From: a virus
IMG/VR virus record: IMGVR_UViG_3300035510_000237
Length of the DNA: 64,000 bases
Strand: one strand, 5' to 3'
The notes beneath the pieces were generated by a model. It saw nothing but the letters and a program-made list of their open reading frames with translations. It searched no databases and was not told the origin of the DNA. Made by a program: the position numbers and the translations under genes. This document shows positions 2,344 through 64,000 of the stretch, piece by piece (position 1 is the stretch's first letter; the number at the start of each line of letters is the position of its first letter).

Positions 2344-2409
2344 AAGTCAATAGGCATAGTTACTAATTTTCAAATGAGAATTTTGTACACTATGCCTATT
2401 GACTTTTTC
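2344..2409 (+). terminator. rho-independent terminator (16-bp stem)
   Basis: AAGTCAATAGGCATAG ... CTATGCCTATTGACTT inverted repeat then TTTTT. Confidence 0.7.
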
Positions 2410-2410
2410 G

Positions 2411-2600
2411 GCCGGGCGCCAACGCCCAAGCGCCCCGGTTTTTGCGCAAAATTATATTATATCAAATTTTTTCCGCAATGTCAATAGGCAAAATGAACAA
2501 AATTTATTTCCCGAAATTGTGCACTATGACGAACGCTGCAGTTAGTTAGCACTAACGGCCTGACGCTAACAGGTTAGCACTCTCCGGGCGGGGGTGCTAA
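2411..2600. repeat. composite intergenic element copy A (GC hairpin + ~90-bp AT-rich box + GTTAGTTAGCACTAAC)
   Basis: GCCGGGCGCC..GCGCCCCGGTTTTT hairpin 2411-2443; TTATATCAAATTTTTTCCGCAATGTCAATAGGCAAAATGAACAAAAT shared almost exactly with 5060-5110; partial copies at 560-700 and 7217-7400. Confidence 0.6.
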
Positions 2601-2745
2601 AATGAAGGAAATCTTGCAAACGCTTCACTCTTCTAAAGTGCTAAAGAATGCAGGAAATCTTGCAAAAACTTTAGGCCACTAAAGCTCTAAAGAAAATGCA
2701 GGATTGAGGCTGACCTCTTGCAAATGATGCAAGTCCGTCATTCAA
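2600..2745. repeat. three imperfect ~46-bp tandem repeats (GAAATCTTGCAAA / CTAAAG motifs)
   Basis: AATGAAGGAAATCTTGCAAACGC..TCTAAAGTGCTAAAG / AATGCAGGAAATCTTGCAAAAAC..CACTAAAGCTCTAAAG / AAAATGCAGGATTGAGG..CTCTTGCAAATGATGCAAG. Confidence 0.5.
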
Positions 2746-2776: not shown

Positions 2777-2805
2777 TTGACATATAACGCATTAGGGCTT
2801 ATAAT
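2777..2805 (+). promoter_or_regulatory. class-1 promoter
   Basis: TTGACA 2777-2782, 17 bp, TATAAT 2800-2805. Confidence 0.6.
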
Positions 2806-2847
2806 ATAGGAGCATTGAAGATTCGATGCAGAAAGGATTTGATAAAA

Positions 2848-3645
2848 ATGCCCATTAACGAACTGAATATTGACCGCCGGAAGAAGTATATTCTAATGGT
2901 GGACACTGAAACAGCCAACTGCCATGACGGTGAAAAGGTCAATCCGGTGTCCGCTTTGGTATACGACTTTGGATGCGCTGTAGTGGACAAAAAAGGAAAC
3001 GTGTATTACACGTTTAGCGCCATTAACAGAGACATTTTTGTGTATGAGCGTGACCTGATGCAATCCGCTTACTATGCTTGGAAAATCCCTCAGTATGTCG
3101 AAGATATTCGCAATGGACAGCGAAAAATGCTGGATTGGGTAGAAATCAAATTGAAGGTGCGGGAAATTATCGCGGCATTCGGTATAACTACGGTATGCGC
3201 CCACAACGCTAGATTTGATTACTACGCTATCCAGGCAACTGAGCGGTATATCTCCAAGTCGAAGTATCAGTATTTCTTCCCTTACGGTATGGAATGGTGG
3301 GATACTATGAAGATGTCACGGAGCGTCATTCATAACCAGCCAACATACAAGGCATTTTGTCAGGAACATGGGTTTATGACAAAATCCGGCCGATGCTCCA
3401 CGACAGCAGAAAACCTTTATAAATACATTACCCTAAACCTAGACTTTAAAGAAAGCCATACAGGGCTGGAAGATGTGCTGATTGAAAAGGAAATTCTTGC
3501 TTATTGCTTTAGACAACACAAGGCAATGGAAAAGAACCTATGGAAGCAAGACGGCCTGACAGATAGACAGATAGAGATTCTGTTAGAACGGCAGTGGGAA
3601 TTTCTACCCGCATTCCCCACAAAAAATATTTTTCAAGAAATCTAA
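2848..3645 (+). CDS. DnaQ-like (DEDDh) 3'-5' exonuclease
   Basis: Exo I MVDTETA, Exo II CAHNARFD, Exo III HTGLEDV; RBS GAAAGGATTTGATAAAAATG. Confidence 0.7.
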   Translation: MPINELNIDRRKKYILMVDTETANCHDGEKVNPVSALVYDFGCAVVDKKGNVYYTFSAINRDIFVYERDLMQSAYYAWKIPQYVEDIRNGQRKMLDWVEIKLKVREIIAAFGITTVCAHNARFDYYAIQATERYISKSKYQYFFPYGMEWWDTMKMSRSVIHNQPTYKAFCQEHGFMTKSGRCSTTAENLYKYITLNLDFKESHTGLEDVLIEKEILAYCFRQHKAMEKNLWKQDGLTDRQIEILLERQWEFLPAFPTKNIFQEI

Positions 3646-3654
3646 AAAAAGTTC

Positions 3655-3683
3655 TTGACTTCTGACCCAAGGTGTGGTAGAAT
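3655..3683 (+). promoter_or_regulatory. class-1 promoter (distal of tandem pair)
   Basis: TTGACT-17-TGgTAGAAT. Confidence 0.6.
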
Positions 3684-3753
3684 AAAGACGTTCCAAGGGA
3701 ACAGGGCGAGTCCTGAGTGAGGTTAGAAAACCTTGCAAAACCTTAAAAAGGTC

Positions 3754-3782
3754 TTGACAAGCCCTAAACCCTGTGGTACAAT
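3754..3782 (+). promoter_or_regulatory. class-1 promoter (proximal)
   Basis: TTGACA-17-TGgTACAAT; leader CAGAAAGGAATTGATATT. Confidence 0.65.
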
Positions 3783-3835
3783 ACATAACGTAAGGTGACA
3801 AGGACAGTCGTTAAAACCAGAAAGGAATTGATATT

Positions 3836-4216
3836 ATGGATAAGATGACTAATGTGAAGGCTCTGGAGTTCGTGCTTGCTAATTGCGAGATTCCCGCCGA
3901 TGTAGCTGCTAAACTGACTTCCCTCAAGGGTCAGTATGAGCGCAAGAGTGCAAAGAACCCTGACCGCAAGCCCACCGCCGCTCAAATTAAGCGCAAGGCC
4001 ATTGCAGATGCGGTTTACGCATTCATGATTCCTGACACGTTCTACACTCTGACAGAGCTTGCAGAGGGTGTTCCGGAGCTTGGAGCTATCGAAAATCCTA
4101 GCCCTCAGAAATACCGTGGTGTGGTCGGTGTCCTGATTGATGCCAAACTGGTAGAAGCTACCAAGGAAAAGGGAAAGACTTACTACAGTCTGACCAAGGT
4201 AGAAGCTGGGGCGTAA
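3836..4216 (+). CDS. hypothetical early protein, paralog of 5458..5865
   Basis: shared MTNxKALExVLxNCExPxDVA...EKGKTxY pattern with 5458 protein. Confidence 0.6.
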   Translation: MDKMTNVKALEFVLANCEIPADVAAKLTSLKGQYERKSAKNPDRKPTAAQIKRKAIADAVYAFMIPDTFYTLTELAEGVPELGAIENPSPQKYRGVVGVLIDAKLVEATKEKGKTYYSLTKVEAGA

Positions 4217-4240
4217 AAACCCCACTTCTACCCCCCGGAA
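4208..4240 (+). terminator. stem-loop without T tract (attenuator or processing site)
   Basis: GTAGAAGcTGGGGcgtaaaaaCCCCACTTCTAC. Confidence 0.35.
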
Positions 4241-4255
4241 AAGGTAGGTGATTGA

Positions 4256-4612
4256 ATGACCGCACAAGTTGAAAAGCTAATGAAAACGCTAAACCTCACC
4301 GAAGCCGAAGCACTCCAACTGATTGCAGATGATAAAGCAATCGACAGAGGCGCAAAGCTATTTGAACTTGACCCGGAACTTGAAGCCGGAGCGAAGAAAG
4401 CAAGACAAGCGGAGCGCAAGAAAAGCACTACCCCGGTAAAACGTGAGCGCAAGGAAAACCCGTCCAAGAGAGAAATCATTAAAGCCCTGACTGCGGGTGT
4501 AGGTGATTTACTCGATGCGGGTAGCCTGGAAGTTACCAACGTGGAAAGAGAGTTCACCTTTACAGTCGATGGAGTTAAATACAAGGTTGTACTAAGCGCA
4601 CCCCGCAAGTAA
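4256..4612 (+). CDS. hypothetical basic/acidic early protein
   Basis: RBS AAAGGTAGGTGATTGAATG; 118 aa. Confidence 0.55.
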   Translation: MTAQVEKLMKTLNLTEAEALQLIADDKAIDRGAKLFELDPELEAGAKKARQAERKKSTTPVKRERKENPSKREIIKALTAGVGDLLDAGSLEVTNVEREFTFTVDGVKYKVVLSAPRK

Positions 4613-4666
4613 CCAAAAAGGGAATGGGAGTTACTTCCCATTCCCTACCAGGGAAAGGAAAGTCAC

Positions 4667-4825
4667 ATGGACGAAAAAACCTATTATGTAAATTTCTGGG
4701 GCTGGTGTGAAATCGAAGCAAGTTCCGAGGAAGAAGCGAAAGCCAAATTCTGGGAATATGTCATGAACGAAAAAGCCCTTCCCAAAAACATTTATGAAAT
4801 CTTTAGTGCAAACGAAAAAGCATGA
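4667..4825 (+). CDS. hypothetical 52-aa protein
   Basis: RBS GGAAAGGAAAGTCACATG; MDEKTYYVNFWGWCEIEASSEEEAKAKFWEYVMNEKALPKNIYEIFSANEKA. Confidence 0.45.
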   Translation: MDEKTYYVNFWGWCEIEASSEEEAKAKFWEYVMNEKALPKNIYEIFSANEKA

Positions 4826-4853
4826 TGCGGGAGAAATCCCGCATCAATTTTTT
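4824..4853 (+). terminator. rho-independent terminator
   Basis: GATGCGGGAgaaaTCCCGCATC + ATTTTTT. Confidence 0.7.
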
Positions 4854-4854
4854 A

Positions 4855-5025
4855 CCATCCGCTTTAATACTTTAAAGTCCATCACCCGCGGACACTTTAA
4901 GGCTTTAAATCGCTATTGCTTTAAAGTCCGCCGCTCAAGGACGCTTTAATACTTTAAAGCGACGCACTTTAACACTTTAAAGTCCTCCCCTCATAGACAC
5001 TTTAACGCTTTAAAGCGTGAAACCG
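4855..5025. repeat. array of ~6 ACTTTAA-N2-CTTTAAAG repeats (palindromic CTTTAAAG cores)
   Basis: CTTTAATACTTTAAAG, CACTTTAAGGCTTTAAATCG, GCTTTAAAGTCCGCC, CTTTAATACTTTAAAGCG, CACTTTAACACTTTAAAGTCC, CACTTTAACGCTTTAAAGCG. Confidence 0.65.
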
Positions 5026-5150
5026 GGCGCTCTCTAGCGTGGCGCCCGGAATTTGGCCAAAAATCTATTATATCAAATTTTTTCCGCAATGTCAATAGGC
5101 AAAATGAACAAAATATTTTTCCCGATTTTGTGCATTTTGCTACTAGACAA
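5023..5150. repeat. composite intergenic element copy C
   Basis: CCGGGCGC..GCGCCCGG hairpin then TCTATTATATCAAATTTTTTCCGCAATGTCAATAGGCAAAATGAACAAAAT, near-identical to 2447-2500. Confidence 0.6.
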
Positions 5151-5172
5151 ACAGTCTCCATGGTGGTATAAT
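5144..5172 (+). promoter_or_regulatory. class-1 promoter
   Basis: TAGACA-17-TGgTATAAT. Confidence 0.55.
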
Positions 5173-5277
5173 AAAGACAATCCAAGAGGGATTGATGATG
5201 AAGGCGAAGGGATTTGAAGGCGCCCATAAATCTTGATGAACGCTGACCTTTCCCTCTTGGAGAAAATTAAAAAACAC

Positions 5278-5306
5278 TTGACAAACCATCCGCCTTATGA
5301 TATAAT
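5278..5306 (+). promoter_or_regulatory. class-1 promoter
   Basis: TTGACA-17-TGaTATAAT. Confidence 0.65.
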
Positions 5307-5376
5307 AAAAACGTTCCAAGGGAAGAGCGGTTAGCAAGACAGAAAAAAAGTTTCTGAAAAAAAAATAAAAAAACTC

Positions 5377-5405
5377 TTGACAAACCACTCAACTTGTGGT
5401 ACAAT
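5377..5405 (+). promoter_or_regulatory. class-1 promoter
   Basis: TTGACA-17-TGgTACAAT; leader CAGAAAGGAATTGATACT. Confidence 0.65.
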
Positions 5406-5457
5406 ATAATCAATCAAGGGAAGGAAAACCCTTAAAAACCAGAAAGGAATTGATACT

Positions 5458-5865
5458 ATGGCTACTACTACTGAAAAGACTGTGAAGATGACTAATGCAA
5501 AGGCTCTGGAGTATGTTCTGGAGAATTGCGAAGTTCCTACCGATGTTGCTGAGCGTTTCAACGCAATGTTGACTTCTCTCCAGAAGAAGGCAAGCGCACC
5601 GAAGAAGCCTTCTGCAAAGCGTACTGAAAACGAGGCACTTGCTGAGATTATCTACCAGTACATGGAAGATAACACCTATTACAGCGGAGTTGATTTCCGC
5701 AAGGATGTTCCGGAGGTTGCCGCTTATGGCACGGAGATGAATCCGCAGCGCATGACCGCAATCATGAGAATCCTTGTGAACGAGAACCAGACCGTTACCA
5801 AGGTAACTGAGAAGGGCAAGACCTTCTATGTTAAGAAGAATGCGGAGGATGTGGAAGGGGTTTAA
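5458..5865 (+). CDS. hypothetical early protein, paralog of 3836..4216
   Basis: three upstream promoters; conserved leader; paralogy to 3836 protein. Confidence 0.6.
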   Translation: MATTTEKTVKMTNAKALEYVLENCEVPTDVAERFNAMLTSLQKKASAPKKPSAKRTENEALAEIIYQYMEDNTYYSGVDFRKDVPEVAAYGTEMNPQRMTAIMRILVNENQTVTKVTEKGKTFYVKKNAEDVEGV

Positions 5866-5892
5866 CCCCTTCCCTTCCAGGAGGAATAAAAT

Positions 5893-6057
5893 ATGGACGA
5901 GAAAAAGCGTGTTGTGATTCTTGACCTAGAGGATTGTAACGACCCTCACCCTTTAATGCTGACAGAATCCCAGATTCGGCTATTGGAATGGCTGATTAAA
6001 GAGGGAATGTCAATGCACTTCAATTATTTAAAAATTGGAGATATTCAGCAGATTTGA
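5893..6057 (+). CDS. hypothetical 54-aa protein
   Basis: RBS CCAGGAGGAATAAAATATG. Confidence 0.45.
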   Translation: MDEKKRVVILDLEDCNDPHPLMLTESQIRLLEWLIKEGMSMHFNYLKIGDIQQI

Positions 6058-6069
6058 GGCAAAAATAAA

Positions 6070-6126
6070 GCGTTTTTCCAGTTTTTCACTTAAAAAATCT
6101 CAAAAAACTGGAAAAACGCACTTTTT
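6070..6126 (+). terminator. rho-independent terminator (17-bp stem)
   Basis: GCGTTTTTCCAGTTTTT ... AAAAACTGGAAAAACGC + CTTTTT. Confidence 0.7.
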
Positions 6127-6167
6127 CCCCTATAAAAATCCACAAAAACGCAGAAAACGAGGCAAAA

Positions 6168-6749
6168 ATGGCACAGAATTGGAAATTTTATATCGAAAAT
6201 GATGATTTTGAGGGCGCTTTTGAAAGATTTACCAATGCTACCAAAAATTGGAAGAATCATTGGTTCGACGTATGCGCCCAGATTATGGAAAATTGCAAAG
6301 AGTGGGCAAAAAAGTATCTCTTAGACCCAATAGCAAAGACCATTGAAGTAAAAATCAAAGTACCCCGAACCCGCAAGACCTACGACATCGATACCCAGAA
6401 CATTAACCTTTTAGACGATGCAAAAGAAAAGTGCTACCTTTTCCGTTTCTTTGATGCAGACGGGAACCGCCTGTGCTCTAAGGTTGGAACTACTCAGCGC
6501 ACAGTTTTGAAACGTTTAAAGGAAGAGCTTTCCAGCAAAACCTATATTGGAATGGGTGCAGTTAGAGCAGTAATTGACCGGGTTTATGACTGTGGAGAAA
6601 TGCCCGCCGAAGGGCTGGAAAGTCGGTTGCGTGCGGAGTATATCCAGAAATACCCTGGAGCTTTTAAGAAGAATGACCGCTTTATTTTTGCAGATTTTGA
6701 CCTTGAAGAATGTGATAAAATCGCAAAAAAATATTTGGCTAGGGCTTGA
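6168..6749 (+). CDS. hypothetical protein
   Basis: 193-aa ORF; weak GIY-YIG-like stretch CYLFRFFDADGNRLCSKVGTTQRTVLKRLKEE not considered diagnostic. Confidence 0.5.
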   Translation: MAQNWKFYIENDDFEGAFERFTNATKNWKNHWFDVCAQIMENCKEWAKKYLLDPIAKTIEVKIKVPRTRKTYDIDTQNINLLDDAKEKCYLFRFFDADGNRLCSKVGTTQRTVLKRLKEELSSKTYIGMGAVRAVIDRVYDCGEMPAEGLESRLRAEYIQKYPGAFKKNDRFIFADFDLEECDKIAKKYLARA

Positions 6750-6774
6750 CAAAATCCCCTTGGTGTGGTATACT
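6746..6774 (+). promoter_or_regulatory. class-1 promoter
   Basis: TTGACA-17-TGgTATACT; leader AAAGAAAGGAATTGATATT. Confidence 0.7.
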
Positions 6775-6817
6775 ATAACCATCAAGGGGATACCCCTTAA
6801 AGAAAGGAATTGATATT

Positions 6818-7114
6818 ATGGCAAGCACAACTTTTTGGAATGAACTGTACAGCATGGACCCGGCCCAGCTTGAGGAAGTCATTTGCGAAGCTACCAAGGT
6901 GAAAGAGGACTTGGAAGCTGAGGCAGAGTGCCTTGAAGATTGGAACAAGGTGCGGGAAGCTATGAGAGATTTCTGCTTCAAGCACGATATGGTCATCAGC
7001 TTCCTTGTTTCCGGCATGGTGGATGAAAATACCGCCAAAGAGTTCTGGTATGATGGCTTCGACTTGAATAGCATCTTCGGAGCACCAGGAGTCATTGAAC
7101 TGGGGGAGGGCTAA
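6818..7114 (+). CDS. hypothetical acidic early protein
   Basis: ATG after conserved leader. Confidence 0.55.
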   Translation: MASTTFWNELYSMDPAQLEEVICEATKVKEDLEAEAECLEDWNKVREAMRDFCFKHDMVISFLVSGMVDENTAKEFWYDGFDLNSIFGAPGVIELGEG

Positions 7115-7143
7115 CGCCCTTCCCCTAGGGGGAAACAAAAATG

Positions 7144-7171
7144 AGGCAGAGAAATCTGCCTCGTTTTTTTG
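7144..7171 (+). terminator. rho-independent terminator
   Basis: GAGGCAGAgaaaTCTGCCTC + GTTTTTTT. Confidence 0.75.
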
Positions 7172-7184
7172 TGCAATTTGCCTA

Positions 7185-7213
7185 TTGACAGGAGCCATAA
7201 AGTATGGTATAAT
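7185..7213 (+). promoter_or_regulatory. class-1 promoter reading into a ~750-bp non-coding stretch
   Basis: TTGACA-17-TGgTATAAT; -35 overlaps reverse copy of TGTCAATAGGCAA motif. Confidence 0.6.
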
Positions 7214-7216
7214 TTA

Positions 7217-7400
7217 GCCGGCGCTCTACGAGCGCCGGCCCCGGTTTTCCATTATACCACACATTTCACAAAAAGTCAAGCAAAATTTTTCGTCATTTTC
7301 AACAAAATATTTTTTCCCAAAATTGTGCATTCTGCTAGTCTGCCCGGGTTAGTTAGAACTAACTATAGTTTGTTGAAACTAATTCCTGTCGCGCACCTAG
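7217..7400. repeat. composite intergenic element copy B
   Basis: GCCGGCGCTC..GAGCGCCGGC hairpin, TTTTTCCCAAAATTGTGCATTCTGCTAGTC, GTTAGTTAGAACTAAC. Confidence 0.55.
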
Positions 7401-7679
7401 CTTCTGGCCGGCCGGTTTCGGAAGATTCTGGCCCGTTCTAGCTCTCTGACCCTCATATGCAAATTTTTTTGAACTTCTAGCTACCTCAACGCTTAACCCA
7501 AATTTTCCCAAAATTGCAAATTTTTTCTAATGTCAAATTTTTTAGCGCCCAGCTTGCTCTGGAATAGCGCCTGAGCTATGCTCTTGAGAGCTGCACTCCA
7601 AATGAAAAGAGAAAAACGGAACAGTGTTCGTTTTTTAAATTCCTGAGGCAATGAGAATAGAAAAACAAATCAATCATCT

Positions 7680-7732
7680 ACTTTAAATATTTTACTTTAA
7701 CGCTTTAAAGCGTTAAAGCGAAGAGAATCTTA
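7680..7732. repeat. second cluster of CTTTAAAG-type repeats
   Basis: CTACTTTAAATATTTTACTTTAACGCTTTAAAGCGTTAAAGCG. Confidence 0.5.
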
Positions 7733-7771
7733 AAGGCGAGCGCGCAAGCGCTCATATGCTCGCCTTTTTGA
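7733..7771 (+). terminator. rho-independent terminator
   Basis: AAGGCGAGCGCGCaaGCGCtcatatGCTCGCCTT + TTTG. Confidence 0.6.
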
Positions 7772-7782
7772 ACTTCTAGCAC

Positions 7783-7811
7783 TTGACTTTTAATAAAAAA
7801 TATGTTATAAT
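7783..7811 (+). promoter_or_regulatory. class-2 promoter (first of three tandem)
   Basis: TTGACT-17-TATAAT within TTGACTTTTAATAAAAAATATGTTATAATA cassette. Confidence 0.6.
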
Positions 7812-7844
7812 ATTAAAAAAACACATAAATAGCGGGCGCCGCAT

Positions 7845-7873
7845 TTGACTTTAATTAAAAAATATGATACAAT
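7845..7873 (+). promoter_or_regulatory. class-2 promoter
   Basis: TTGACTTTAATTAAAAAATATGATACAAT. Confidence 0.55.
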
Positions 7874-7906
7874 AATAAAAAAAATATTTTTTTATTATTA
7901 TTTTAT

Positions 7907-7935
7907 TTGATTTTAAAAAAATTTTATGTTATAAT
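7907..7935 (+). promoter_or_regulatory. class-2 promoter
   Basis: TTGATTTTAAAAAAATTTTATGTTATAATATATATAC. Confidence 0.6.
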
Positions 7936-7968
7936 ATATATACAAAAGATATAAAGGAGTCAGATATT

Positions 7969-8514
7969 ATGTTTGATGTTAATGACATTCTTAGTCAGCT
8001 GAAGGATGGTAGAAGCATTGAGGATATTGCGGATGATTTTTCTGTAGTCCTAAATGCAGCTGCGAAGCAGAAGGCAAAGGAAGAGGAAGCTGCGCGAGCC
8101 GCAGAAGAGGCAAAAGCTAAGAAGGCTGCTGAGGAAGCTAAGGCTAAGAAGAGAACCGCAGAGAAGGAAAAGGCTGCTGATTATCTCATTCAGAACTTTA
8201 TTGGCTTCATTAAGGAATTCTATCCTGATGTAGAACTGAGCAAGGATGAACCGGTCACTGGGGCAGAGTTGATTAAAACACTTGATTCACTTTTCAGTAT
8301 CTATGGAAGTATTAAGACATCCCTTGATAAGCTTGCAAATGGCTTCTCTACTACTACTACTACTACAGCAACAGGTCCTAATGGCGGTGAAGCTACTATT
8401 AATTACGCAGTAAACTGGGGTGATAGTGTTGATTCTATTTTTAATACTATTAATAACACCTTTTCAGATACAGACCCGCTTACAAAGTTTCTTGATGTTA
8501 ATGGCCTGCTTTAA
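7969..8514 (+). CDS. hypothetical protein (EAKAKK repeats, poly-Thr tract)
   Basis: RBS AAAGGAGTCAGATATTATG; 181 aa. Confidence 0.55.
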   Translation: MFDVNDILSQLKDGRSIEDIADDFSVVLNAAAKQKAKEEEAARAAEEAKAKKAAEEAKAKKRTAEKEKAADYLIQNFIGFIKEFYPDVELSKDEPVTGAELIKTLDSLFSIYGSIKTSLDKLANGFSTTTTTTATGPNGGEATINYAVNWGDSVDSIFNTINNTFSDTDPLTKFLDVNGLL

Positions 8515-9363
8515 TTGAAAAAGCCTCGAAAATTTAGATAAAAACTTAAAAATAAAGAGATGTTCGTGAGAACTAAAATTTGTTCCACAGAATGGCAATC
8601 TGAATTAGTTTTGAAATAAGTTTTCTGAGCCAAGAGGAAAAAAGAAAAGCGTTGTACTTTGACAAATAAATAAAGTGTTTAGTTAGAGGAAAGAGGAGGA
8701 CGGGCTAGCGGAGACGGTGAAAAGAGGTAGCGTAAAGAGCGGAGCACGCCTATCTCACATTTTCAGAGATTTTTCTTTAATTTCTTTAAAATTTTTAAAA
8801 ATTTTTCTTTACTCTTTAGAAAATTTTTTACATTTTTTTCAAAAAATTTTCTTTGCTTCTAAGAATTTCTTTGCGTTTTAAAGTTTATCCCAATCCCTCC
8901 ATTGACCTTCCACTATTTAGATATTTTCAAAAAAATTTTCAAAAATTTTTTCTACCATTTGTACTAAAAATATCTAATTAGCCTCTTGTCTCCTCCAAAA
9001 GCATTCTAAATATTATACCTACCTAAAAAATTATTTTATTATAACACTAAAAGGTATTCAATATATGATTAAATATATTGAATACCTTTTTTCTTTTTAT
9101 CTGCGCAAAAATCAAATCATTTTTCCATTTGTTCCTTGCCTCTTTTTTCAAATGAGTTTTTCAAATCCTTCTTGGCCCCGGATTTTCAAATCATTTTTCA
9201 AACCTAACCCACCCCCTCTAAAACCTTCCTTCTCTTTGCGGCCCCTCCCCCTATTTGGGCGCGAAACCTTCCCAAGGGTAGATAAAGTTTTCTTGGAGAG
9301 CGAAGCTCGGAAAGAAACTTTATCTACCCTATATTATTTAGTATTATTTTATTACTTAGATAA

Positions 9364-62320: not shown

Positions 62321-64000
62321 TTCAAACACTAAAAGAGTATGAAGCTAGTGTAAATTCTCTTAATATTTATACTTGTTTTTATAATGATGGAAACCCCTTG
62401 GTAAGTGATAAAGAGTGGGATGACCTTTATTTTCAGATTAAAGAATATGAGGAGCGAACTGGGGTTCATAGCCCCTATTCGCCTACTCACGCAATTGTTT
62501 ATCAAAAAGTAGACGAATTGGAGGAAGTAAGTCACAATCATCCAATGTTATCTCTTGATAAAACTAAAGACTGGGATGAATTTCTCAAGTATTTTAGTTC
62601 AAAAGATGCAAGTAAAAATGTCGTAGGAATGGTTAAACTTGATGGTCTGACTTGTAGTTTGCGCTATGTAGATGGCCAACTAGTTTCAGCAGAAACTCGC
62701 GGAAATGGCACAGTGGGTTCTAATATTCTTCATAATGCCTTGGTAATTAATTCAATCCCTAAAAAGATTGAATATAAAGACGAGCTAATCCTTGATGGAG
62801 AAGTCATTTGTAAGCGTAGTGATTTTGAACCTTTTGCTGATGAATATAAAAATCCTAGAAATTTTGCGGCTGGTAGTATTAGACTTCTTGACTCTAGCGA
62901 ATGTGCTCATCGAAATCTAACATTTGTTGTTTGGAATGTTGTTAAGGGCTTTTCTGAATCTAATTCATTTATTGAAAAACTAGAGCTAATTGAAAAGCAA
63001 GGCTTTATTACAGTACCTTGGACTTCTTCTTTTGACTGGGATGCCGCAGATTTTCTTAAAAACCAAGCTGATGAATTGGGCTACCCGATTGATGGCCTTG
63101 TAGGAAGATTTGAGGATATTGCTTTTGGAGAGTCTCTTCCAGCTACTGCGCACCATAATGGGGCTGCATTTGCTTTTAAATTTTATGATGAAGAGTATGA
63201 AACTCAGCTTTTGGATATTGAATATGGGATGGGCCGAACTGGTCAATTAACTCCTGTAGCAGTATTTCAACCTGTAGCTACAGAGGATAGCATTATTGAA
63301 AGAGCTTCTTTACATAATTTAAGTGTTCTAAAGGAAATATTAGGCCAGCCTTATGTTGGACAAAAAATTAAAGTAGCTAAGATGAATATGATTATTCCAC
63401 AAGTCATGTCAGCAGCTGATTGGATTGAAGGTGCGACTGCGATTAATCCTCCTGATATTTGTCCAGTTTGTGGAGGAAAAGCAGAAATTGTAGAATCTGA
63501 TTCCGGTATTAAAAATCTGATTTGCGCCAACCCTCAATGCTCTGGCAAAGCAATTAATGTAATTGACCATTTTGTTGGACTTAAAGGACTTGATATTAAA
63601 GGACTGTCAAAGGCTACAATTGAAAAATTAATTGATTGGGAATGGGTAACTTCTCCAATTGATATTTTTTATCTTGATAGTCATGCAAAAGAATGGGTTA
63701 AGAAGCCTGGCTTTGGGCCTAAGTCTGTTGAAAAAGTTCTTGAGGCCATCAAAAAAGGCTCTGAGGATGTAGACCTATGGAGGATTATTTCTGCGGCCGG
63801 CATTCCTTTAATTGGTTCTACCGTAGCAAAGCAGCTTGCAGAAGAATTTAAAACTTATGAGGCTTTTCGTGAAGCTATTGACAATAAATATGATTTTACT
63901 AAACTGTATGGTTTTGGGTATAATATGGCTGATAGTCTTTTAAATTATAATTATGATGAATTGGATGAAATTGCTAAAATTGTAAATATTAAAGAAGTTG
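62316..64000 (+). CDS. ligA: NAD+-dependent DNA ligase (3'-partial at window end)
   Basis: adenylation motif MVKLDGLTCSLRY (KxDG), Zn finger CPVCGGKAE..CANPQCSGK, HhH region. Confidence 0.75.

Follow-up and report, generated by a model that had tools for sequence, protein, structure and literature searches.

What is an array of short palindromic repeats doing between the early genes of a large phage? The question arises from a 64,000-nucleotide stretch of viral DNA (IMG/VR record IMGVR_UViG_3300035510_000237; hereafter the window), in which copies of a unit centred on the palindrome CTTTAAAG are packed into one intergenic region and recur in smaller groups elsewhere among the early genes. The CTTTAAAG repeats are real, conserved and non-coding, and the phages that carry them are large, uncultivated entities of 120 to >190 kb from animal and human gut samples, with early genes that are nearly all unannotated. 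A conserved cis element of this sort offers a handle for annotating early transcription units throughout the clade, and the unit itself could be used as bait for its regulator.

The genome to which the window belongs is large and phage-like. The window codes for GyrB, GyrA, NAMPT, flotillin and an RNA ligase, as well as for a major-vault-protein-like protein that is 39% identical to one from 462-735-kb 'uncultured phage' records, and it holds a block of 14 tRNAs, including a suppressor tRNA with a CTA anticodon, and a ROOL RNA. Identical sequence of this phage is present in six samples, the longest contig reaching 5.7 kb upstream of the window. The first ~13 kb of the window is an early, host-takeover style module, made up of short ORFs, nearly all unannotated, with terminators and nine perfect TTGACA-17-TATAAT promoters between them. 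Pfam and PHROG scans of ten ORFs neighbouring the array recognized two of them, one as a HAD-like phosphatase (720-1181) and one as a DnaQ-like exonuclease (2815-3645), and no others.

The repeat array and its neighbourhood

Direct reading of the sequence places six CTTTAA-NN-CTTTAAAG units at 4860-5023 (cluster 1; Table 1), five of them exact and one (4911-4929) with a degenerate first hexamer, which bears out the first-pass annotation of this DNA, where an array of about six units had been noticed. The region of unit 2 reads ACACTTTAAGGCTTTAAATCG from 4893. A repeat search resolves the same array into three copies of a ~51-nt super-unit, with spacings of 49 and 56, each super-unit consisting of two units with GTCC-N9-GGAC between them, and the centres of successive octamers in the array lie 33, 16, 33, 23 and 33 bp apart. 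The octamer CTTTAAAG occurs nine times in the 64 kb window, as against 3.6 occurrences expected, with five copies in the array and one in cluster 2. More telling is the core CTTTAANNCTTTAA, with its 12 specified bases, of which there are seven exact copies (0.05 expected), every one in the array or in cluster 2.

Table 1. Positions of repeat units, clusters and neighbouring features in the 64,000-nucleotide window.
Feature	Position	Strand	Sequence or description	Basis or remark
Unit 1	4860-4880		CGCTTTAATACTTTAAAGTCC	Direct reading, repeat search and core count
Unit 2	4893-4912		CACTTTAAGGCTTTAAATCG; one mismatch in central octamer	PWM 19.4 bits
Unit 3	4911-4929		CGCTATTGCTTTAAAGTCC, degenerate	73% copy of super-unit
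Unit 4	4942-4961		CGCTTTAATACTTTAAAGCG	PWM 17.7 bits
Unit 5	4965-4985		CACTTTAACACTTTAAAGTCC	Direct reading, core count and PWM
Unit 6	4998-5023		CACTTTAACGCTTTAAAGCGTGAAAC	PWM 32.9 bits, matrix trained only on other phages
Cluster 2	7680-7720		Degenerate half unit (7680-7694) and palindrome (7695-7718)	PWM 40.3 bits
Cluster 3	2621-2694		Two degenerate units, CGCTTCACTCTTCTAAAGTGCTAAAGAA and AACTTTAGGCCACTAAAGCTCTAAAGAA, 46 bp apart	46-bp repeat in TRF; PWM 17.1 and 15.3 bits
Intrinsic terminator, bidirectional	4823-4846	both	-18.4 kcal/mol, z -5.9	Closes gene 4667-4825; left bound of array
GC-rich hairpin	5021-5052		CCGGGCGC-11 nt-GCGCCCGG	Module present three times in window
Promoter	5067-5095	minus	Perfect TTGACA-17-TGnTATAAT	Fires leftwards into hairpin and array
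Strong promoter, first of three in tandem	5144-5172	plus		-35 at 121 bp from array end
Intrinsic terminator	7732-7770	plus	-20.2 kcal/mol, then UUUUU	Directly after cluster 2
Strong promoter, first of three in tandem	7783-7811	plus		-35 at 65 bp downstream of cluster 2
Exonuclease-gene promoter	2777-2805			-35 at 85 bp downstream of cluster 3
Predicted winged-helix protein, 126 aa	3836-4216	plus	Paralogue of 5458-5865 protein	Weak candidate binder
Predicted winged-helix protein, 135 aa	5458-5865	plus	First gene downstream of array	Weak candidate binder

The second, shorter cluster that the first-pass annotation had placed next to a terminator is likewise where it was said to be. Its main element is a perfect 24-bp palindrome, CTTTAACGCTTTAAAGCGTTAAAG, and Tandem Repeats Finder reports the stretch 7695-7719 as 3.1 copies of a period-8 repeat with the consensus CTTTAAAG. 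Searching the genome for the motif lengthens the list by one cluster in the window (cluster 3) and by a cluster outside it, a seven-unit degenerate array ~5 kb upstream of window position 1 (cluster 4; L068, 435-725) that has a terminator on one side and a promoter on the other. A PWM trained only on the units of other phages finds the window's clusters independently, with matches at 2621/2667, 4893-4998 and 7685/7693, as compared to 0-3 matches in shuffles; the same matrix has zero matches across the 56 kb from 8 to 64 kb.

On its right, the array is followed by a GC-rich hairpin and a minus-strand promoter. Counterparts of the hairpin are conserved in L005, the closest relative described below, and in the loci L121-L124. 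The module of minus-strand promoter and hairpin also exists without any array, at 2400-2520 and 7215-7330 of the window and again in L121-L124.

Anatomy and symmetry of the unit

The consensus of 129 distinct units is yR-CTTTAR-YR-CTTTAAAG-YR-YTAAAG-Yr, and the full site of ~28 bp consists of three tandem 8-bp boxes of the palindrome CTTTAAAG, as in the 28-bp unit TACTTTAACGCTTTAAAGCGTTAAAGCG. Unit 6 is the only full three-box unit of the window array; a recognisable third box is found nowhere else in it. Among the 129 units the T and A positions are 85-99% conserved, with T reaching 90-99% in several columns, and the dinucleotides that lie between the A/T tracts are kept, on both sides, only as pyrimidine-purine. 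When units are oriented by their downstream promoter the two halves mirror each other closely, with the half of the central octamer that is farther from the promoter slightly weaker.

Whether this symmetry belongs to a folded strand or to duplex DNA can be asked of the variable positions. Compensatory changes indicative of hairpin covariation were sought in the 129 units, and none were found beyond what column composition yields: at two variable symmetric positions Watson-Crick combinations number 68 (55.5 expected from column composition) and 51 (61.2 expected), and G-T and A-C mismatches are equally common. Because the pyrimidine-purine steps are kept at positions that are not complementary, the pattern argues against an RNA hairpin or a selected cruciform, and for a protein that reads duplex DNA.

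Spacing from unit to unit has a broad peak at 36-42 bp and minor peaks at 23, 31-33 and 46-47 bp, and is regular without being locked to the helical repeat. The phasing that the first-pass annotation ascribed to the array thus holds loosely, in the form of the broad peak, and does not hold strictly, as the uneven octamer distances given above make clear. The linkers between units are GC-rich and 10-16 bp long. With such linkers, and with units that are 60-100% identical, the array does not have the form of a CRISPR array, for which near-identical 28-37-bp repeats and unique spacers of at least 26 bp were looked for.

Conservation among related phages

Motif scans of IMG/VR show the unit to be carried by ~50 viral contigs of 20-190 kb, most of which have the HAD and exonuclease early genes; a scan with the central part of the unit returned 49 stretches, many of them from contigs of roughly 90-190 kb and many with multiple units. 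Clustering of the ORFs at the motif loci found the HAD-like and exonuclease early proteins to be common to 18-19 loci; the phages with the motif form one broad lineage. Matches in L001, L002 and L004, together with many matches in genome contigs (L013, L016, L020 and others), were rejected as relatives, being simple 8-bp tandem repeats in unrelated genomes.

The closest relative is L005, which comes from a 156-kb contig and whose exonuclease is 70% and whose HAD-like protein is 59% identical to those of the window, with two more early proteins at 45-63% identity. It carries two arrays of ~10 units and, at the position syntenic to cluster 1, an array of three. The order of elements at the syntenic position is that of the window, namely a homologue of gene 4256-4612, a terminator, the array, the same GC hairpin and a minus-strand consensus promoter, and copy number differs, with six units in the window versus three in L005. 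Absence of the motif from syntenic positions in related phages had been named beforehand, along with a lack of protein binding, as what would speak against such binding sites; since the motif is present at the syntenic position in L005 and across ~50 phage contigs, the first of these objections fails.

Elsewhere in the clade the numbers of sites vary, from single units through pairs ~40 bp apart to arrays of 5-10. In L007, L006, L008 and L078, pairs of units ~40 bp apart, with a GC-rich palindrome between them, occupy nearly every intergenic gap, and these contigs also carry one five-unit array. In L003 and L021, contigs of ~139.6 kb, units adjoin the HAD homologue. Enterococcus Herelleviridae-like phages and Phass-1 share the exonuclease and lack the motif, megablast of window positions 3000-9000 and of L007 against GenBank phages gave no match, and a literature search for the raw motif returned primer coincidences only.

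Position relative to promoters

The position of the sites is constrained. In L007, L078, L090, L092, L098, L103, L108, L118, L005, L033, L035 and the window, each cluster was paired with the closest promoter that points away from it and agrees with the consensus at 11 or more of 12 positions, and the distance to the -35 element was measured. In most cases this element is 30-130 bp downstream of the cluster, which itself lies past the previous terminator, the terminator of the preceding gene being on the far side of the cluster from the promoter. The individual values are 71, 91, 79, 64, 46, 90, 89, 49, 81 and 129 bp in L007, include 78, 34, 70, 57, 42, 102, 48, 84, 64, 63 and 60 bp in L092, and are 85, 121 and 65 bp in the window. 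Promoters that fire into a cluster are rare, the exceptions being cluster 1 of the window and its counterpart in L005.

Unlike classical operator sites, the clusters do not overlap or abut promoters. A location 70-200 bp upstream of a promoter is an unusual place for a simple repressor to act, a point that counts against reading the sites as operators. Separately, both of the window's main clusters may be transcribed, unlike those of L007-type phages, as cluster 1 lies downstream of the minus-strand promoter and cluster 2 upstream of a terminator.

Proposed operator-like sites and alternative explanations

What, then, are the repeats? From their symmetry, conservation and placement we infer that the array is, on balance probably, a set of operator-like sites at which a protein of two-fold symmetry (a dimer or higher) would recognize double-stranded DNA by its sequence and regulate or insulate early promoters. 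The sites form a family of cis elements found throughout the clade, which places them in what should be an untranscribed spacer, which runs from the terminator of one early gene through the sites to the next strong sigma-70-type promoter. The bound protein, probably in the form of several cooperating dimers, would act on the adjacent consensus promoters from about -70 to -200, most likely to shut off or insulate early transcription, either through RNA polymerase, which it might contact or trap, or through the DNA, which it might bend or bridge in the manner of phi29 p4. Promoters that match the consensus as well as these do should need no activator, and a negative or insulating role is therefore favoured.

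This explanation retains part of what the first-pass annotation suggested. Sites for a dimeric DNA-binding protein involved in early control agree with the two-fold symmetry, with pyrimidine-purine steps kept without complementarity, and with syntenic conservation; the promoter overlap that would go with a conventional operator is missing. Nothing found points to an early-to-middle switch specifically, and the roles in partition or as sites of nucleoid organisers that were also put forward are not supported.

The array could instead function as RNA, an alternative that we regard as quite unlikely. A minus-strand sRNA of ~235 nt would start from the promoter at 5095-5067, run through the GC hairpin and then through six hairpins that contain CUUUAAAG, and stop at the terminator 4846-4823, possibly serving as a sponge for an RNA-binding protein. 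The perfect TTGACA-17-TGnTATAAT promoter that fires into the array is conserved in L005 despite a differing spacer sequence, and a same-strand terminator closes the transcription unit, but two further copies of this promoter and hairpin module in the window, and others in relatives, have no array attached, and in most relatives the units are preceded by a terminator and followed by the next promoter, in a spacer into which no promoter fires and from which a transcript is not expected. The array region folds well on both strands (z -4.4 and -7.0), yet repeated palindromes give low folding energies trivially, on the opposite strand equally well, and the compensatory variation that a selected RNA fold would leave is absent from the 129 units, where G-T and A-C are equally common. 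The same boxes are found in host genomes, in a 5' leader where they overlap the Shine-Dalgarno sequence, as described below, a setting that would suit an RNA element; a search of the array against Rfam 15 gave no match at gathering score, only chance-level miRNA and snoRNA matches at E up to 10.

Palindromes that spread through intergenic regions are also familiar as selfish or structural elements, and the units could be of this sort, either REP/BIME or MITE-like palindromes or mobile 'terminator-repeat-promoter' cassettes that help to shuffle small early genes, such as have been proposed for T4-type PeSL, in either case with no dedicated binder. Dispersal is indeed seen in L007, L078, L090 and L092, where nearly every gap of the early module contains one to three copies; GC-rich palindromic linkers separate the units; copy number varies at the same locus, as in the window and L005; and the motif is absent from sister lineages that have the same early genes. 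We nevertheless give this explanation little credence. Even between phages with proteins of only 30-60% identity the individual bases of the core are conserved, which indicates selection on the sequence and not on palindromy alone, and the palindrome is not kept by covariation. Promoter distance is constrained as well, and no transposase or RAYT-like gene is present among the annotated genes of the four contigs that cover most of the window.

It is very unlikely that the array represents the iterons of a replication origin, or a centromere bound by a ribbon-helix-helix (RHH) or ParB-type protein. Tandem boxes with an 8-bp period, in both orientations, do resemble RHH sites such as those of ParG, omega and MetJ, arrays of 5-10 units exist, and some relatives have their arrays within extended non-coding stretches that also contain other palindromes and LexA-like boxes and are a few kb away from ORFs read by eye as putative terminase subunits. 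An origin or a centromere would not be expected in so many copies, however: the early region has at least four clusters, and in relatives each intergenic gap has one. Nor does the window have the other marks of an origin: DnaA boxes number 25 against 20 expected, with none at the array, no AT-rich unwinding element lies beside cluster 1 (GC 0.41-0.44), and cumulative GC skew is monotonic, with no switch. ParA, ParB, Rep and RHH genes are likewise absent among the annotated genes of the four contigs covering most of the window.

Least credible of all is that AT-rich palindromes act by DNA structure alone, as cruciforms or hinges that absorb negative supercoiling behind very strong promoters. 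In its favour, the units lie upstream of consensus promoters, are separated by GC-rich clamps and combine a central TTTAAA with TA and YR steps that can flex; one perfect palindrome (7695-7718) folds as a 10-bp hairpin, and the phage encodes its own gyrase. Yet selection does not maintain complementary arms, most units of the window array lack the third box, five of the six not being palindromic beyond 8 bp, and sequence conservation is far above what a purely structural role needs.

Candidate binding proteins

If the repeats are operator-like sites, the next question is which protein would bind them, and no phage protein among those examined tracks the motif. The genes of two winged-helix paralogues flank cluster 1 on both sides and are weak candidates. 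An AF2 model of the 5458-5865 protein (pLDDT 76.6) has a C-terminal domain with a helix-turn-helix and a beta-hairpin, and its top Foldseek matches are nearly all winged-helix proteins (Rpc34, RTP, ArsR/SmtB, PadR, Fur), with a few methyltransferases, at E values of only 0.05-0.3; a PDB sequence search with the paralogues gave nothing significant. These proteins were set aside as the binder, the fold being weakly supported (E of at least 0.046) and the family being found also at the motif-less loci L011 and L012. The 118-aa protein of gene 4256-4612, just upstream of the array, is strikingly conserved, with 1189 homologues, of which the 120 listed are mostly ~56-66% identical, and was rejected in turn, as three of four contigs with a homologue have no motif within 20 kb. 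Neither the HAD-like phosphatase nor the DnaQ-like exonuclease is a DNA-binding regulator, and precomputed Pfam matches for the called genes of four contigs covering most of the window include no HTH, RHH or ParB protein. LexA was also considered: Cheo boxes adjoin units in L003, L007 and L113, and none is near the window clusters, the sole GAAC-N4-GTTC match in the window being at 62456; a box-like CGGAACAGTGTTCG at ~7618 has N3 spacing.

A host-encoded binder is somewhat favoured over a phage-encoded one, and a scan of bacterial genomes points in that direction. The phage-like contigs L033, L035, L021, L026 and L062 are binned in MAGs of Acutalibacteraceae and other Clostridia. The same scan found six chromosomal loci, in Acutalibacteraceae and Clostridia MAGs, that share the leader CACTTTAGCRC..AAAAG-CTTTAAAG-CTTTAAAG-AtTTAAAG-GAGCG. 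Downstream of the leader is the start codon of an operon for a sodium:solute symporter and an AMP-binding acyl-CoA synthetase, and upstream of it is a sigma-70 promoter. The leader is invariant in all six loci, in which the promoter spacer and upstream DNA vary, and its boxes overlap the Shine-Dalgarno sequence; Rfam has no match for it. As a lead that falls short of a result, the leader hints that a host factor recognizes tandem CTTTAAAG boxes. Such a factor would explain why the motif occurs in only some sister phage lineages.

A more specific proposal, tentative and rather unlikely as judged from these sequences, is that the phage units bind a regulator of an Acutalibacteraceae or related Oscillospirales host, which would also bind the leader of the actP/acs-like operon. 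If this is true, the early region of one sub-lineage among the large gut phages has come to carry dozens of sites for a host regulator. Early promoters could in that case be coupled to the metabolic state of the host or, alternatively, the arrays could act as a DNA 'sponge' that titrates the regulator off its chromosomal targets. Should a host factor be involved, the motif, present in some sister lineages and absent in others, might also serve as a host-range marker.

Comparison with known systems

The Bacillus phage phi29 is, to our knowledge, the only phage in which the control of strong consensus promoters from upstream sites is well understood, and it also provides the closest likeness to operator-like sites of the kind proposed here. 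In its early-to-late switch, the p4 dimer binds pairs of imperfect inverted repeats, CTTTTT-15 bp-AAAATG, in which three A-tracts are read indirectly and the DNA is bent, and p4 together with p6 represses the strong early promoters A2b and A2c (PMC3100819, PMC1904284). The units resemble p4 sites in being imperfect inverted repeats of ~24-27 bp with outer A/T tracts that end in C/G and a central A/T tract, and in occurring as adjacent pairs (here 36-42 bp apart) beside strong sigma-A early promoters of a Firmicute phage. Shape reading through deformable pyrimidine-purine steps may be a further likeness. The differences are that the outer arms are 12 bp apart, versus 15 bp for p4, that the sequence is not the same, and that phi29 has four sites in one control region, whereas dozens of units, in arrays of up to 10, are spread over the early module here. 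No p4-family protein (Pfam Phi-29_GP4) is present among the called genes of the four contigs covering most of the window.

A precedent for a motif dispersed in this way is SPBRE, the SPbeta repeated element, which lies in many intergenic and promoter regions, was found in silico, and was later shown to be the recognition site of the master repressor MrpR (PMC10516654). Both are short conserved motifs across many intergenic regions of one phage; SPBRE, however, is a 15-bp element in promoter regions of a temperate prophage, in contrast to a 24-28-bp palindrome, often arrayed, that lies upstream of promoters. No tyrosine-recombinase-like repressor of the MrpR type was seen in the window. For a host factor there is precedent in the host Spo0A boxes near early promoters of phi29 and Nf, which let the state of the host gate the lytic programme (PMC2731898). 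The motif in that case differs, and the host factor proposed here is suggested only by the Acutalibacteraceae leader.

The boxes themselves invite comparison with RHH operators, such as the met-boxes of MetJ, the tetramer boxes of ParG with their 8-bp period, and the heptads of omega. Shared features are short (pseudo-)palindromic boxes with a 7-8-bp period, in either orientation and in variable number. The box sequence is unrelated, however, and units here are split by GC-rich linkers of 10-16 bp instead of forming one uninterrupted run; Pfam and PHROG scans of the ten neighbouring ORFs, and the precomputed Pfam matches, show no adjacent RHH gene or ParA. Mycobacteriophage stoperators, asymmetric 13-mers that act within transcription units, and the OB sites of RK2 KorB, a ParB-family protein that recognizes a single 13-bp palindrome per site and acts 40 to >1000 bp from promoters, likewise place many copies of one repressor site over the intergenic regions of a mobile genome. 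Neither the stoperator-repressor nor the KorB type of protein was seen here. With the family of dispersed operators that includes SPBRE/MrpR, stoperators and P1 C1, the units share the occurrence of one motif in many intergenic regions, and do not share the overlap or abutment with promoters.

The unit, its upstream placement, its arrays, its restriction to a sub-lineage and its possible link to a host factor are apparently undescribed in the literature and databases searched. Regardless of these particulars, the kind of element is already known, both as dispersed operator-like repeats of phages and as upstream regulator sites, and the present phages would add another case to that of phi29, in which very strong consensus promoters are controlled from upstream sites.

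Bacterial leaders and palindromes that resemble the phage unit

A scan of bacterial genomes with the phage unit led to six chromosomal loci, in MAGs of Acutalibacteraceae and Clostridia, that share an invariant leader of three CTTTAAAG boxes, the third of which overlaps the Shine-Dalgarno sequence. The leader is flanked on one side by a sigma-70 promoter and on the other by an operon encoding a sodium:solute symporter and an acyl-CoA synthetase, and it found no match in Rfam. It is a candidate for a host operator or an RNA leader, and L027, L053 and L057 have similar leaders in different contexts. The core of another element, the perfect palindrome GCGCTTTAGYGCTTTAAAGCRCTAAAGCGC of about 30 bp, is also similar to the phage unit, and copies of this palindrome are scattered across five large contigs of a single Actinobacteria MAG (GL140_3).

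Coordinates of features in the window and in related sequences
Feature	Sequence	Position	Remark
Leader with three tandem CTTTAAAG boxes	L014	3965-4004
	L036	6456-6495
	L043	3067-3106
	L045	3867-3906
	L056	1527-1566
	L067	3376-3415	rc
Perfect GCGCTTTAGYGCTTTAAAGCRCTAAAGCGC palindrome	L022	7641-7664
	L024	4842-4865
	three more contigs
Canonical Firmicute LexA (Cheo) box, GAAC-N4-GTTC	L007	2095-2110, 5770-5785, 10425-10440
	L003	near 100-150	rc
	L113	7165-7180
Thrice-repeated module	window	2400-2520, 5020-5150, 7215-7330	88% identity over 94 bp
ROOL RNA	window	25512-26099	RF03087, 320 bits
CTA-anticodon (amber suppressor) tRNA	window	25272-25346	in 14-tRNA block
804-aa protein, major-vault-protein shoulder domain	window	30809-33223	PF11978, 6.5e-21

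Other elements of the early control regions

Each copy of the thrice-repeated module combines a GC-rich hairpin, a perfect consensus promoter on the minus strand that points into the hairpin, and a AAAATGAACAAAAT..TTTCCCGAAATTGTGCA motif. At window 7185-7279, convergent consensus promoters on the plus and minus strands, only ~38 bp apart, face a single hairpin (7215-7240). The relatives L121-L124, L011 and L012 likewise have a promoter with a GC hairpin and T-run directly 3' of it. These modules may produce tiny hairpin RNAs or act as promoter/terminator insulators. The predicted transcript of the promoter at 5144-5172 opens with a long-range hairpin, CCAAGAGGGA ... TCCCTCTTGG (5173-5275), that encloses a micro-ORF of 13 codons, MMKAKGFEGAHKS, and two more consensus promoters come in tandem ahead of the first real gene (5458).

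The non-coding early regions also contain, intermingled with CTTTAAAG units, a recurring palindrome, GTTAGTTAG..CTAAC, and a recurring motif, TTTGTGCA(A/T)TT, with occurrences at window 2540-2560 and 7350-7375 and at several places in the closest relative, L005; these control regions thus seem to hold additional cis elements. The TTGCACAA motif is also present in L011. In several relatives (L007, L003 and L113), LexA boxes directly adjoin or sit near CTTTAAAG units, which hints at SOS-linked control in these phages; the window has no such box near its clusters.

Other genes and RNAs of the window

The conservation of a 118-aa early protein (4256-4612) is unusually strong for a small early phage protein, with 1189 homologues in metagenomes and identity mostly ~56-66% among the 120 homologues listed, some of which are on contigs of up to 221 kb. 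The protein has a basic stretch in its centre and a beta-rich C-terminus, and carries no Pfam or PHROG annotation. The 804-aa vault-domain protein is 39% identical to proteins from 'uncultured phage' genomes of 462-735 kb. The ROOL RNA sits inside a block of 14 tRNA genes (21371-27752), whose amber suppressor tRNA points to recoding of TAG, of the kind known from 'code 15' gut phages.
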